Shown one piece after another: positions 39,001 to 45,000 of a stretch of DNA of 64,000 nt. The position numbers were made by a program. Numbering within the stretch: the first letter of the stretch is position 1; each line of letters begins with the position of its first letter. The DNA comes from Longimicrobiales bacterium (lineage in GTDB: Bacteria; Gemmatimonadota; Gemmatimonadetes; Longimicrobiales; Gaopeijiaceae): positions 384,001 through 448,000 of the forward strand of contig CBDDCX010000006.1 of NCBI GenBank assembly GCA_965226375.1, given 5' to 3'.

Positions 39001-42000
39001 GCGCTCGTGGCCGGCGGCGGGCTCGCCTTCGCCGAGTCGGCCCTCGACCACGCCGAGCTCAAGATCCCGAATGTCACACTGATGCCCGGGAGAATCCCTA
39101 GACAGCGACATCATCCCGGGCTGCAGTCGCAGCATTCGGTAACCACCGGCGCAACACCGCCATCAGCTTCGCGGACGACGACGTCACCTAGGGCCACCGA
39201 GGTGACGCTCGCGGTCGCGTCCGGAACAGAATCCCGCATCGGTTCGCCTGCTGCCGCGATGGCCGTCCGGCATCTGGAAGGTGGCATCCTCCACTCGCGC
39301 GGTCCGACACTCTCGGTGCGTCAGCTCTGTCCTGGCCGCTCCCCGAGGCTGGCGGTGGCCTACCAGGTCGCGGTGTTCATCGAGGCCTGCAGCCGGGCCA
39401 TGTGGCCCCTGTTCCCTCCCCCGGGGCAACGCGCCCCGGAATTCTTCACCGAACAGAACGGAGGCAGACCGATGACGAGAGCAATGGAACAGGGCATGGA
39501 CGCGCCCGCGCGCGTCCTGCGGTTACCTCGAGTGCAGGCCCGCACGGGGCTTGCGCGGAGCACGATCTATGTGCGGGTGGCCGACGGGAGCTTTCCCCAA
39601 CCGATCCGGCTAGGCGCCCGCGCCGTCGGCTGGATCGAGTCCGAAGTGGATGCGTGGATCCGAGAACAGATCGCCGCGAGCCGCGGCAACGCGAAGTGAT
39701 CTGAAACACTAACCATCTATAATAGTCCGCAATGAGAGAGAACAGGGGCCATCGACAAACTGCCCTCCCGCAAGGTTCGCTCCTTCGCCTCCTCCGGGAA
39801 CCTCCGCTACGGTCCACTAGATTCCCGTTCAGAAAGAGGGGTGTAATGAGGGGACGGTAGTACGGGTATGACTCGTATATATTGTAACAACAATGACTTA
39901 TAAAAAATAAGACACAGCCGACCCAGCGCCGGGCGAGGAAAGTGGCGAGTGACGAGGGGGCGCTCCGAGGTGATATCGTGCGACTCGCGAGTCGATTCGG
40001 CCGCTACGGCTACCGACGCGTCACGGACATGCTCCGCATCGAGGGCTGGGGGGTGAAGCACAAGCGGGTGGAGCGGATCTGGAGGCAGGAGGGGCTGAAG
40101 GTGCCGCAGCGGCAGCCGAAGCGAGGTCGGCTGTGGCTCAACGACGGATCGTGCATCCGGCTGAGGCCGCTGTATCGGGGCCACGTCTGGTCGTACGACT
40201 TCGTGGCCTCGAGGACGCACGACGGGCGTGCGCTGAAGCTGCTGACAGTGCTGGACGAGCACACGAGGGAGTGCCTGGCGATCGTGGTGGCTCGCAAGAT
40301 CCGCTCGCACGACGTGCTCGAGGTGCTGGCCGATCTGTTCGTCCGACACGGGCCTCCCGAGTATCTGAGGTCGGACAACGGACCGCGGAGTTCACCGCGA
40401 AGCTCGTGCGGCGATGGTTGGGGCGCGTGGGCGTCGAGATGCTCTTTATCGAGCCGGGCAGCCCGTGGGAGAACGGCTACAACGAGAGCTTCAACGGCAA
40501 GCTCAGGGACGAGCTGTTGAACGGGGAGATCTTCTGCTCGTTGGCGCAGGCGGCCGTGCTGGACGAGCAATGGAGGCGCGAGTACAATACCGTCCGACCC
40601 CACAGCGCCTGCGGCGGCTTTCCCCCGGCCCCTGAGGCGATTAAGCCGTCGCCCTGGTTCCTGAGGATGCCCGTCCTTCACGGCTCTCCACAGGTGCTGG
40701 AACTAACATAGGATGTGGTACCGCTCTTGGGGGCAGGTCACTGTGAGAGCAGCGTTGATCCAAACATGCCCCAGTCGGAGGTTGAGGAATTCGTCAGGCG
40801 AATTCTTGACAATGGGAGCATAGAAGGTGCTGACTTCATCTGGGAAGCTCTCCAACGGTAGTTGACAGGGGGGAGTTCCATCGCCAGGTGCTCAATCGCC
40901 TGCCGGTTAGGCGAGAGGTGTGGAGCTACTGACGTTGTGTGATCTTTGGTGAGCTCCTCGAAGATGCTCTCCGGAAAACACCATGCCGTCGGTAGATGTC
41001 GGTAACGTTCCCTCTGGCTGAGGGTGGTGCCGCCCGGTGGGGGTACTCCTTTATTGCAGGCTCCTGCGGCTGCTCGAGCTTGCTGCGCGACTCGGTCTCT
41101 TGAGGCGGAAGAAGCAACCACTACACGATACGGTCCCTTCGGACGCCAGGGCCGATAAGGAGGTACACATGCCCATCTTGAAATCCAGAAGCCTCTTCAT
41201 CAGCCATTCCTGGACCTATGGCGACGCCTACAAAAGGCTCGTGGCCTTGCTCGATGCGGCGCCTAGTTTCCTCTACAAGAACTACTCCGTCCCAAAGGAC
41301 GATCCGGTCCACAACGCGCCGAACGCCGACGCCCTGTACAAAGCCATCAAGCAGAAGATGGTCTTCTGCGACGTGGTGCTAATAATGGCCGGGAAGTATG
41401 CAACCTACAGCAAGTGGATTCAGAGGGAGATTCAGATCGCCAATCAGGATTACAGCAAACCGATAGTCGGTATCCGTCCTTGGGCGAATGAGCAGGTATC
41501 ATCGGTCGTCTCAAATGCGGCTGACAAACTTGTCGCCTGGAACACCAGTTCGATCGTTTCAGCAATCCGGGAGTTGGATCCGTGACGGAGGCGCTGCATT
41601 CGCCCGAGCAGAAGCTCTCCGGAGCACTCAAGGGCATACCCCCGGACCAATACGGGCCTGCCTATGCGGATCATGTTCTCGAAATCTATAAAAGCTATCT
41701 CGAGATGGCAGACCGCATTAGCAGCCGTCGGGAGAAAGCGAACTCATTCTTCCTCGCCGTAAACGCTGCGTTGATCGCGCTTCTAGCCAATGGCCGGCTC
41801 GTGGGGAGCGACGTCACGCCTCGCACCCTTGAGCTGCTTGTCCCAATATCCGCCGGCATCCTCTGCTATCTCTGGTATCGCATCATCCGGTCGTACCGAG
41901 ATCTCAATTCGGCAAAGTTCAAGGTGATTCACGCAATCGAACTCGAACTGCCGTTACGTCCGTACGATGCGGAATGGGAAAGCGTCGGGCGCGGCAAGAA

Positions 42001-45000
42001 CTCGAAGCTGTACCTGCCCTTCACCCATGTCGAAGCTGTCGTGCCATGGTTGTTCATGTCCCTCTACGCAATCCTGGTCGCGTCTCGTATTCCTTGGGCA
42101 GCTATTTGGACAGCCGTACGAGGCATTGGCTAGCAACTGCACAAGTTCATTGGGCCCATGGATTGCTGTCAGTTGAGAGAGGTGGAGGAAATACACCTGG
42201 CCAGATGCAGTCGAAATAGCTTTGGCCAACCACACCAGTGTTAGGGGGGGGTGACCACGTGGCGATGAAAGCCTTTATCAGTTTCGACTACGATCATGAC
42301 ATGGACCTGAAGACGTTGTTGGTGGGGCAGGCGAAGAACTCGGATACCCCATTCGAAATCGCCGATTACTCGGTCAAGGAGACATTAACGGGCGACTGGA
42401 GGAAGAAGGTCAAAGAGAAGCTCAAGCTCGTTGGTGTCGTCATCGTCATTTGCGGCGAACATACGGACTCAGCCAGCGGCGTCAGCGCAGAACTCGAAAT
42501 TACGCAGGAGCTGGGGAAGGCCTATTTTCTTCTCTCTGGCCGCAGTGGGAAGACCTGCGTCAAACCCAAAGCTGCGAAGACATCTGACAAGATCTACAAA
42601 TGGACGTGGGACAACCTAAAGGCGCTCATCGGCGGCAGCCGGTGACGCGCTGCGGGTAGGTCTATGAGACGTGCTCTTTGCGTCGGCATCGACAACTATA
42701 CGGCTGGCCCCCTTCGCGGCTGCGTCAGCGACGCCGAACGATTGTGCTCTGCTCTAAGGTGTAACCAGGATGGCTCGCCAAACTTCGAGCCACGATTGCT
42801 AGTCGCTCCTGACCCAGGACCAGATGACGTCGTTACTCGCCGCGTTCTCCGCAAGCAGCTAGGACGGCTGTTCAAAGATCCGGCAGAGCTAGCGCTCCTT
42901 CACTATTCTGGCCACGGCACGGTCAACAATCTGGACGGGTACCTGGTCACGCAGGATGCTGCTAAGTTCGACGAAGGTATCGCGATGGGGGAAGTGCTCA
43001 CGCTCGCCAATGATTCGCCGGCGGATGAAGTGGTCGTCTTCGTCGATTGCTGCTACTCGGGGAGGTTCGGCAATCCGCCTGCAATCGGCAATGCAAGAGT
43101 CTTGCTGCGAGAAGGCGTCTCGATCCTGACTGCGAGCAGGGGTGATCAGCCCTCGGTCGAGACTGGGGGAGGAGGTGTGTTTACGTCGCTTGTGCTAGAT
43201 GCCCTTGAAGGAGGAGCGGCGGATATTATTGGCTCGGTGACGCTCCCAGCCATTTACGCCTACGTGGCTGCCGCCTTAGGAGCATGGGATCAACGTCCCC
43301 TATTCAAATCCCACACGTCTCGGCTACTACCGCTCAGGCGATGCACGCCGCCGATAGAGCAGAGTCTCCTGAGAGACTTGCCTCTGCTTTTTCCGCTACC
43401 TGCAGAGGATCTTCCTCTTGATCCTTCATTTGAGCCGCAATCCGCGAGACCTGATGAAGGGAATGTGGCCACCTTCGGAAAATTGCAGGCCTTGAGTAGA
43501 GGGTGAATTCAAGAGGTCGTCGCAACACCTCAGGAAAGAGGAGGAGTTGCGATGGCGGCAAGCAAGCGCCGACGGTCGGATCGAGCTTTGCGTCCGCCGA
43601 TGGGTTCACCCGGTCGTCCCCCGTTGGGGCGCCGGGAGCATCGGCAGAGGTTTTGGGAAGAAGTTGCTCGAGGGCTGTCGAGCGAGGAGTCGGCGGTGGC
43701 AGCCGGCGTGTCTCCCGCTGTTGGAGCGCGCTGGTTTCGCCAATGTGGTGGCATGCCACCTTTCAGTCTTCGTCCTCTGTCGGGGCGCTACCTATCGTTC
43801 GTCGAGCGAGAAGAGATTGCGGTTCTTCAAGCCCGCGGTTGTGGCGTACGTGAGATCGCCCGGCAGTTGCGCCGCTCATCGTCGACGATCTCGCGAGAAC
43901 TGCGGCGGAACGCAGCAACGCGAAGTGGAAACCTCGAGTATCGAGCCACGACCGCCCACTGTTGACCTTCTCGGAGACGCCAACTGGGAGTTGGCAGACG
44001 GTGCCGTTTCAGCAAATGAGGGCAGCGGGTTCCTCGTCTCGGAGGAGTCCTACGGTGATTTCGAACTGACGCTGGAATTCTGGGTCGATGAGCCCGCCAA
44101 CAGCGGAGTGTTCATTCGCTGTTCGGATCCCGAAAACGTTGGAGCTGCCAACTCCTATGAAATCAATATCTTCGATACGCGGGCCGACCAGACATACAGA
44201 ACCGGAGGAATCGTGAACGTGGCAGCGCCGGCTAGCGTCATCAATACCGGGGGCCAATGGAACAGTTACGAAATCACGGCCCAGGGCTCACGGCTGGTCG
44301 TCATCCTGAACGGCACCCAGACCGTCGACACGACCGACGATCAGTTTGTCAGCGGCCCGTTCGCGCTCCAATACGGGGCAGGCACGGTCCGATTCCGCAA
44401 CGTCCAGATTCGGTCGCTCGACTAAGACCCCGACGGCAGGACGACCCCTGATACCAGGCGTTCCTCGAAGAGGCGAGGATTACGTGGTGAGGCTCTAGCC
44501 TCGCGCAGTGACAAGCCCGATCTTAAGAACTCACCATCCAAAGGATCCCGACCATGACCAAGCTCACTCTCATTGCCGGCATCGCGGTGGTACTCGCCGT
44601 ACCCCTCTCGCTGTCCGCCCAGAACCCCCTCGTGCAGTCGTTGAAGAGCGTCTTCGATATCACGAAGACCAACATCATGGCGACCGCCGAAATCCTAGAC
44701 GACGAGATGTACACGTTCCGGCCGACCGACGAAGTGCGCAGCGCCGGCGAGATTCTGGCCCACATCGCCGACGGGCAGTTCTCGTTCTGCGGGATCGCAG
44801 TGGGTGAAGCCAACGCCGGTCCCGAAAACTTCGAAGAGACGCGAACCCACAAAGCGGAGATCATTGCAGCACTCAAGCAGGGCTTTGCATACTGCGAACG
44901 CATCTTCGCGCGGACCAGCGATGCGGGGGCGGCTGATGCTGCCGACTTCTTCGGGGCTCCAAACACCGTCGGCGGTATGCTCGCGTTCAACTCCGTTCAC

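Follow-up and report, generated by a model that had tools for sequence, protein, structure and literature searches.

The islet and its genes

The window analysed here is a stretch of 64,000 nucleotides from a Longimicrobiales bacterium, and all positions are counted along it. It contains a low-GC islet of four genes between remnants of insertion sequences (IS):

39942..40741, + strand: IS3-family transposase remnant, frameshifted, the left border of the islet (Pfam HTH_21, rve, rve_3)
40742..41168, + strand: low-GC leader with an AAGGAGG ribosome-binding site ahead of TIR1 (sequence)
41169..41585, + strand: TIR1, a short ThsB-type TIR of 138 aa (Pfam ThsB_TIR 6e-15)
41582..42133, + strand: 8xMP (PF24838) membrane protein of 183 aa, candidate effector (Pfam 9e-38)
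42259..42645, + strand: TIR2, a short type IV-like ThsB (Pfam ThsB_TIR 3.5e-7)
42664..43506, + strand: ThsE-type caspase of 280 aa, C-terminally truncated (Peptidase_C14 2.6e-13)
43500..43958, + strand: IS30-like element, left part only (HTH_38 5.8e-18, HTH ORF 43552-43965)
43968..44425, + strand: 3-keto-disaccharide hydrolase-family gene, 5'-truncated (Pfam PF06439)

TIR1 and 8xMP are called module 1 below, TIR2 and the caspase module 2. The ORFs of module 1 overlap by 4 nt, and 18 nt separate those of module 2. TIR2 is 128 aa long from its GTG, or 126 aa from an ATG at 42265. GC content is 56.1% in the islet, whereas genome windows average 63.5% (sd 1.9) and 0.2% of the 8420 are as low. By gene it is 0.535 (TIR1), 0.569 (8xMP), 0.537 (TIR2) and 0.579 (caspase). 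The genome-wide survey's note had reported four same-strand ORFs with named domains and low GC, and ORF calls, Pfam and the GC computation agree with it.

That note also had IS remnants flanking the islet, which is correct: the IS3-type one runs to about 40741, the IS30-type one from 43500 to 43958. The integrase remnants it listed alongside do have the domains, but these are the rve cores of the IS3 remnant. Other genomic copies of this remnant stop at about 40740, and assembly contigs have loose ends at its right edge, at 40740-40742. Further loose ends lie just before 43968, ahead of the hydrolase-family gene, whose truncated 5' end is the sign of a deletion on the right side of the IS30-like remnant. 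Contigs of two metatranscriptomes leave 40862-43481 uncovered, which is uninformative, as the organism's presence in those runs is not shown.

Both TIRs have their conserved catalytic glutamate (Glu87 in TIR1, Glu78 in TIR2 counted from the GTG); the column of Glu87 is invariant in 64 of 64 alignment rows. The PADLOC results given earlier were reproduced for TIR1 (ThsB, 4.3e-12), the caspase (7.9e-16) and the unmatched 8xMP, but TIR2, said to be unmatched, is a weak ThsB (best 9.1e-5). Of the 9 members of the TIR1 cluster, 8 are full length; the other allele is truncated. Among viral contigs TIR1 had no match, TIR2 had one, and 8xMP had one locus. The single 8xMP match among phage records is a plasmid record that was already among the plasmid matches.

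The caspase is damaged. It has 280 aa where 119 of 119 homologues have 318-328, and the roughly 40 conserved C-terminal residues that are gone include 19 columns of at least 95% conservation. The IS30-like element begins at 43500, inside the 3' end of the gene, and its own end supplies the last residue and the stop codon. The missing tail was not found elsewhere in the genome (5 tails as queries, best E 0.038). All 9 members of the caspase's 90% cluster share the ending LQALSRG, and 4 of these 9 alleles start late. Contig depth goes from 8-25 to more than 1000 at the IS30-like element, with loose ends at 43500 and 43958. At the junction, contigs of two DNA runs reach 25 and 29 letters into the element, where the threshold for bridging was 31. 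In NCBIfam, the caspase scores under the cut-off of the EACC1-associated type.

The His84/Cys129 dyad is intact. The C-terminal domain of the type IV caspase has been proposed as the pocket for N7-cADPR (10.1101/2024.10.24.620036), and the islet protein retains only about half of that domain. Module 2 was in all likelihood inactivated by the IS30-like insertion and a later deletion; the type IV half is probably dead because the element removed those conserved residues. The second pair had been described as a type IV Thoeris, which is right as to descent but not as to a complete system, given the cut caspase.

The membrane protein and its recurrence beside TIRs

Against PF24838, 8xMP scores 129.6 bits (cut-off 30) over model positions 1-133 of 136, and 735 homologues were found. 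Other 8xMP proteins include WP_338438686.1, WP_181375945.1 and WP_156483395.1. An AF2 model has three helices (pLDDT 81). Of the three hydrophobic stretches noted earlier, two, centred near 65 and 159, exceed a KD19 of 1.5; the middle one is below that threshold, but falls in the model's second long helix. Among 116 homologues, 31 columns show at least 90% conservation, and the islet's protein has the majority residue at every one of them. In close relatives 3 of 4 alleles are full length, one more ends 6 residues early, and 1 is frameshifted. The octameric state is a prediction whose basis is the Pfam family name alone.

The protein resembles little that has a name. Against solved structures there was no sequence match, and Foldseek had none at E ≤0.001. 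With VIA-align the matches were all generic helical bundles; the best (Z 10.1, rmsd 3.4, 105 aligned) falls short of the threshold for such bundles. An Atlas search, with PF24838 clusters excluded, led to unnamed clusters only (best 0.90), and no NCBIfam model matched. The SLATT Pfam domain was detected in 1 of 50 family members, at E 0.058, and PF10028 (DUF2270) in 0 of 50. Fusions of 8xMP to TIR-like and DUF7701 domains do exist (loci L186 and L002).

The pairing with a TIR recurs. Among the best 80 of 395 confirmed metagenome matches to 8xMP, 22 were too short to offer the 550 nt upstream that were required. Of the 58 assessable loci, all close to the islet's protein, 44 have a TIR directly upstream and 14 do not. 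Within the phylum itself, all four of the strongest other 8xMP matches have an adjoining TIR. Across PF24838 as a whole the link to TIRs is weak: above the cut-off, a short TIR adjoins 1 of 5 loci in Bacillales and 2 of 17 in Bacteroidota. Two subgroups make up the family: a TIR-linked one, which includes the islet protein, and one that is mostly TIR-free. Homologous TIR-8xMP pairs are found on plasmids, near restriction and toxin-antitoxin genes. Intact examples are those of Polaromonas pH8NP2 and Synechococcus pIITB6_1.

The first pair had been proposed as a further Thoeris-like system built on an octameric membrane protein. A recurrent module of TIR and membrane protein with a Thoeris-like look is what stands of this; the octamer is only a name in Pfam. 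Among the papers listed by full-text literature searches (8xMP, PF24838, ThsF, DUF2270, RipA, N7-cADPR), none deals with a system of TIR and 8xMP. The pair may already be listed, without an assay, in a 2025 Thoeris survey (10.64898/2025.12.03.692087; "the Thoeris survey" below).

Both effectors occur together at four loci: the islet, L139, L258 and L259. L258 has caspase, another TIR, 8xMP and a single short ThsB, in this order. The other three have one short TIR per effector, which is also compatible with two separate signals. The natural tandem of two TIR systems that was claimed for the islet is not supported as a working one, as the caspase is truncated. Nor is the two-effector layout unique to the islet, since these other loci have it too.

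TIRs interleaved between 8xMP and the caspase

A tree was made of 90 TIRs, of which 56 adjoin 8xMP, 31 a caspase and 3 a member of a ThsF-like family. It is a quick tree of 138 columns, without type I TIRs, and its rows were mostly collected by effector. The effector label switches 15 times on it, and 6 of these switches are forced by branches with a support of at least 95. Shuffled labels switch 28.7 times on average, so the real ones are more clustered than in shuffles. Three clades with support 99-100 each contain TIRs of both 8xMP and caspase.

Identities say the same. Of the 56 8xMP-TIRs, 43 share at least 55% identity with some caspase-TIR (maximum 85%), against 0 of 56 (maximum 43%) when three DUF4231-linked TIRs serve as comparison. 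TIR2, itself a caspase-TIR, is closer to its nearest 8xMP-TIR (72.6%) than to the nearest other caspase-TIR (66.4%). TIR1 has 55% identity to its nearest caspase-TIR; its relatives at 39-41% identity lie tail-to-tail with DUF4231 genes at 3 of 3 such loci inspected. Plasmids were also searched with TIR2, a query picked independently of effector. Of the 15 matches, 10 adjoin a type IV caspase and 4 adjoin 8xMP, and the remaining one is next to a TIR/SLOG-like pair.

This interleaving of 8xMP-TIRs and caspase-TIRs is what is new here. Together with the plasmid neighbours of TIR2 it hints, short of even chances, that 8xMP could be a second effector for N7-cADPR, which in the literature searched has so far been tied to the type IV caspase only. 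Similar TIRs need not make the same product, however, because one TIR cluster in the Thoeris survey has several partner types (type I, type IV and 'DUF2270'; 10.64898/2025.12.03.692087).

The novelty is smaller than had been stated. A TIR with a three-helix membrane ring (type V) has already been validated, and the Thoeris survey catalogues 29 putative effector types (10.64898/2025.12.03.692087). It also describes islands with multiple Thoeris systems, for example in Psychrilyobacter with 7 ThsB, 4 ThsF and 2 ThsJ.

Explanations and known systems

Overall, the islet is probably best explained as a horizontally acquired cassette of two Thoeris modules, half decayed. By analogy, module 1 is likely to be an intact Thoeris-like system, its function being a prediction. 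On phage infection, the short TIR would convert NAD+ to a cyclic ADP-ribose signal. This would bind between subunits of a presumed 8xMP membrane ring, at conserved cytoplasmic polar residues, after which the membrane would be breached and the infected cell would stop or die. All of these steps are modelled on Thoeris types IV, V and VII.

N7-cADPR is the likeliest signal because the same TIR lineages have repeatedly changed partner, 8xMP for the type IV caspase or the reverse, although even this choice is tentative. 3'cADPR is unlikely, and some other molecule only slightly less so. If the signal is N7-cADPR, TIR1 and TIR2 would be a pair of sensors that used to supply two effectors, and 8xMP may still receive the signal of TIR2. 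The fuller proposal, in which 8xMP is a membrane effector for N7-cADPR, TIRs are shuffled between protease and pore, and both islet TIRs now act through 8xMP since the caspase was lost, is a somewhat more doubtful one.

Module 1 might instead be type V in a broad sense, with 8xMP a divergent ThsF under the 'DUF2270' label, opened by 3'cADPR. ThsF has three membrane helices and is modelled as a ring, and the TIR cluster with 160 type IV genes in the Thoeris survey also has 122 'DUF2270' partners (10.64898/2025.12.03.692087). The label is evidently loose, as true PF10028 is present in 0 of 301 Bacillales genomes, yet the validated type V systems are from Bacillus. The PF24838 model weakly matches a true DUF2270 gene (23 bits), and two of the named Atlas clusters nearest to a ThsF-like protein contain 8xMP members (0.88 and 0.86; 24% and 14% of members), which are leads only. 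The reading is made rather improbable by an island in genome G306 with 7 TIR genes, 4 small membrane protein genes (2 broken) and 2 TIR-SLOG genes, which is also the make-up of the Psychrilyobacter island in the Thoeris survey. Its membrane proteins are another family (motif RMA.NSF..KGW), matching neither PF24838 nor PF10028. The ThsF family used here is the one inferred from this island, not from the validated Bacillus sequences. Its cross-scores with 8xMP (9.7 and 6.8 bits) are not above reversed controls (11.7 and 5.4), a weak test that barely joins the PF24838 subgroups themselves, and hhalign gave a probability of 1% versus 2.6% for a control, with small alignments and little power. By sequence, 8xMP was not found to belong to this family. 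The TIRs next to it are 162-165 aa or 260-270 aa long, and the two of them that were compared by blastp matched none of the 56 8xMP-TIRs over 90 residues.

Far less probable is a reversal of roles, with 8xMP as a membrane sensor of phage and the TIR killing by NAD+ depletion. The Thoeris survey allows this for unverified TIR pairs (10.64898/2025.12.03.692087), and the TIR-like and DUF7701 fusions to 8xMP would suit it. The islet TIRs, however, are bare domains of 126-138 aa that share clades with the signalling TIRs of type IV, and ThsF, the three-helix analogue, is an effector activated by a signal. About as improbable, or slightly more so, is that there is no defence role, with 8xMP having a RipA-like job in the envelope or the islet being inert cargo between insertion sequences. 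One source does name the family 'RipA family octameric membrane protein', and we take the RipA of Francisella to be the one meant. That protein is described as a homo-oligomeric inner-membrane protein linked to LpxA, not to phage (PMC4322802, PMC4688374). Inert cargo would fit the IS remnants on both sides and the late starts in the caspase alleles. It is at odds with the place of the islet's 8xMP in the TIR-linked rather than the TIR-free subgroup, with the homologous pairs beside plasmid restriction and toxin-antitoxin genes, and with the full-length TIR1 and 8xMP in most cluster members (8 of 9 and 3 of 4).

If the N7-cADPR reading is true, 8xMP would be a second receptor for this signal, small (183 aa) and without any known nucleotide-binding domain. 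It would offer a simple handle on N7-cADPR recognition, and the phage sponge TadIV-1 would be predicted to block both systems. A widespread membrane-protein family known only by its predicted octamer would gain a function. This is cheap to check because a ThsE reporter assay exists, and intact homologous pairs from elsewhere are better material since the islet itself is half decayed.

Module 2 is closest to type IV Thoeris (ThsB and the caspase ThsE, with N7-cADPR), in which a short TIR likewise immediately precedes a Peptidase_C14 protein. Cys129 of the islet is at the position of C129 in PsCaspase, and Glu78 of TIR2 corresponds to E79 of PsTIR (10.1101/2024.10.24.620036). The islet differs in its lost caspase tail, and in having a TIR-8xMP pair ahead of module 2, with a TIR drawn from the same pool.

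Type V consists of ThsB and ThsF, labelled DUF2270, with 3'cADPR as signal, according to the Thoeris survey (10.64898/2025.12.03.692087). Module 1 is similar in being a TIR with a small three-helix membrane protein and no separate sensor domain. It differs in that the sequence of 8xMP sets it apart from the inferred ThsF family, whose partner TIRs are longer. That 8xMP is the validated ThsF was favoured early, and was weakened by the G306 family, the cross-scores and the differing TIR partners. On weak evidence, 8xMP and DUF2270 probably belong to one remote superfamily.

In types VII and VIII, ThsH (SLATT) and ThsI (a hydrolase) share cADPR and co-occur in operons, as described in the same survey. 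This gives a precedent for a single TIR signal being read by two unrelated effectors in one operon, but 8xMP is not a SLATT protein by Pfam. The operon Liu-DS6 (PMC13069673) similarly places a membrane-effector signalling system, Pycsar, in tandem with a type IV Thoeris. The partner there is a cyclase system, with no cross-activation of the effectors, whereas in the islet the signal makers are related TIRs. The nearest relatives of 8xMP itself are the PF24838 family, which the islet protein matches over its full length.

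A half-decayed Thoeris cassette

The low-GC islet holds four genes in two modules, each a TIR gene followed by an effector gene. The positions of the four open reading frames, their Pfam domains and the gene GC values all came out as the genome-wide survey's note had reported them. In window positions, the features are:

ending at about 40741: IS3-type remnant, left border
41169-41585 (+): TIR1, 138 aa, module 1
41582-42133 (+): 8xMP (PF24838), 183 aa, module 1
42259-42645 (+): TIR2, 126-128 aa, module 2
42664-43506 (+): type IV Thoeris caspase ThsE, module 2
43500 to 43958: IS30-type remnant, right border

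This block of 2338 bases has a GC content of 56.1%, and equally low values occur in only 0.2% of 8420 genome windows. No second copy of any of the four genes was found in the genome, the assembly of which is 90% complete. Both TIRs retain a catalytic-type glutamate, which is present in every one of the 64 aligned rows; His84 and Cys129 are likewise retained in the caspase. The glutamate and Cys129 correspond to PsTIR E79 and PsCaspase C129 of the type IV paper (10.1101/2024.10.24.620036).

The caspase is 280 aa long, versus 318-328 aa in all 119 other listed homologues (from the best 120 of 2883 matches). The lost tail includes 19 columns with at least 95% conservation; it was sought elsewhere in the genome and not found. 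The final codon and the stop are instead supplied by the end of the IS. All 9 members of the caspase's 90% cluster, 4 of them with a late start, share this shortened, IS-derived end, which means that the break is common to the lineage and not an assembly error. Two other DNA runs give contigs that overlap the IS by 25 and 29 letters, slightly below the bridging threshold. The IS30-type remnant stops at 43958 beside a gene that has no 5' end, which indicates a later deletion.

In the type IV paper, the C-terminal domain of the caspase is the proposed N7-cADPR pocket, stated there as a hypothesis (10.1101/2024.10.24.620036). We infer from the sequence that module 2 is no longer functional. The earlier assignment of this pair to type IV Thoeris stands for its TIR and caspase genes, but not for a complete caspase, given the tail cut at the IS. 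The islet is a genuine Thoeris cassette, half decayed.

The surroundings also deserve mention. By eye, the small ORF at 39522-39699 resembles AlpA-type regulators, which control integrative elements, and similar DNA occurs at several other genome sites. Also by eye, 32236-38847 is a long fibronectin/autotransporter-like gene spread over several frames; an IS110 transposase (36851-37996) interrupts it, and part of it is repeated on another contig of the same genome (C7). At 45241-46191 lies a metallo-beta-lactamase-fold protein (Lactamase_B, 1e-19) with a signal-peptide-like start, an assignment of fold alone and not of resistance.

The TIR-8xMP pair

The 8xMP protein has 735 close homologues, and carries the majority residue at 31 of 31 columns with at least 90% conservation. 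Many of these columns are polar and lie outside the hydrophobic stretches. The structural model predicts three long helices (residues 28-69, 81-120 and 146-169; pLDDT 81).

Among the best 80 of 395 confirmed metagenome matches, 58 had sufficient upstream DNA; a TIR lies directly upstream of 8xMP in 44 of these and is absent there in 14. In the phylum of this genome, PF24838 matches occur in 10 of 301 genomes, with an adjacent TIR in all 4 of the strongest other matches. TIR-8xMP is a real, recurrent unit.

The PF24838 family is wider than this system. Above the cut-off, a short TIR adjoins only 1 of 5 loci in Bacillales and 2 of 17 in Bacteroidota, and most of the TIR-free loci fall in a separate subgroup. 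This second subgroup, which has no short-TIR neighbour, comprises loci L183-L185 and L187, plus 10 Bacteroidota loci among L205-L231. This means that Pfam counts for 8xMP combine two biologies.

Several variants were seen in the compared loci. In L002, L003, L209 and L186 an N-terminal domain is joined to 8xMP, and a separate short TIR precedes each fusion. The domain is DUF7701 in L002, which L003 and L209 resemble in length and TIR clade, and TIR-like in L186. In L172:1358-2791 and L175:459-1910 the domain sits inside ORFs of ~480 aa, with no upstream TIR seen. L255, on a Paracoccus plasmid, has the pair, and an inserted element divides its 8xMP gene.

The analysis establishes directly which genes are present, that their catalytic residues are kept, that the caspase is truncated, that the pair recurs and that the two effectors draw on a common TIR pool. 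By analogy with types IV, V and VII, the TIR of module 1 would sense phage and make a cyclic ADP-ribose signal. This signal would bind between the subunits of a predicted membrane ring, and the resulting loss of membrane integrity would lead to abortive infection.

A TIR pool common to 8xMP and caspase

In a quick tree built on few columns, 56 8xMP-adjacent TIRs are interleaved with 31 TIRs adjacent to type IV caspases (effector gene starting at most 150 nt downstream, duplicates removed). There are 15 label changes, 6 of them forced by strong branches, and three clades with support 99-100 each hold TIRs of both kinds. Identity between the two kinds reaches 85%, and for 43 of the 56 8xMP-TIRs there is a caspase-TIR that is at least 55% identical. 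The three DUF4231-linked TIRs, by comparison, do not exceed 43-45% identity with either group.

An effector-blind plasmid search with TIR2 gave 15 matches, the neighbours being caspase in 10, 8xMP in 4 and a TIR/SLOG-like pair in 1. For TIR1 (50 of 105 records listed), the top three plasmid matches adjoin 8xMP (72%) and caspases (53% and 47%). Both effectors share one locus in the window and also in L139, L258 and L259; the tandem of two TIR systems, earlier proposed as a novelty, is neither new nor unique. In L249, L251, L252 and L258 a second TIR gene (~155-168 aa) follows the type IV caspase gene, a possible accessory component.

The most interesting feature of module 1 is what these relationships tentatively suggest: 8xMP may use the type IV signal, N7-cADPR. 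The published survey (10.64898/2025.12.03.692087) found N7-cADPR production in none of its 15 new systems, and a membrane effector for this signal would therefore be new. Against a shared signal, type I TIRs are absent from the tree, and even the closest caspase-TIR shares only 55% identity with TIR1. The TIR cluster in the survey mixes signals (10.64898/2025.12.03.692087), and 3 of the 4 loci having both effectors keep one short TIR per effector.

Comparison with type V Thoeris

The survey catalogues 29 putative effector types and validates TIR with ThsF, the type V effector (10.64898/2025.12.03.692087). ThsF is a membrane protein with three helices; it carries the label DUF2270 and is activated by 3'cADPR. 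True DUF2270 (PF10028) genes have no TIR neighbour in the 4 genomes carrying them, and a search of 301 Bacillales genomes gave none, so the label is loose.

A compared genome of the genus Psychrilyobacter (G306) has an island (L202:13958-19002 and L203:6638-12507) of 7 TIR genes, 4 small membrane protein genes (2 broken) and 2 TIR-SLOG genes. The survey gives the same make-up for a Psychrilyobacter island (10.64898/2025.12.03.692087), and these membrane proteins are taken as the likely ThsF family. They match neither PF24838 nor PF10028. Although Pfam holds no model of this family, 3121 representatives match it at E 0.001. It occurs in at least 4 of 281 Bacillales and at least 6 of 291 Bacteroidota genomes (at most 13-14 candidates scored per genome), and adjoins TIRs of 162-165 or 260-270 aa in 7 of 11 loci.

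Profile comparisons of 8xMP with this likely ThsF family, which are weak tests, scored no higher than reversed controls. Faint DUF2270 and Atlas links suggest that 8xMP, the likely ThsF and DUF2270 may form one remote superfamily. In the survey, the TIR cluster that holds the type IV genes includes 122 partners labelled 'DUF2270' as well (10.64898/2025.12.03.692087); the TIR-8xMP pair is for this reason probably in the survey already, as a putative entry.

Type V Thoeris and module 1 share a TIR and a three-helix membrane protein. They differ in that the likely ThsF family is apart from 8xMP in sequence and pairs with longer TIRs, of 162-165 or 260-270 aa. By analogy, 8xMP would act as ThsF does, without being equated with it. 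The TIR-8xMP module is best described as an apparent variant of a known Thoeris kind, with a putative function.
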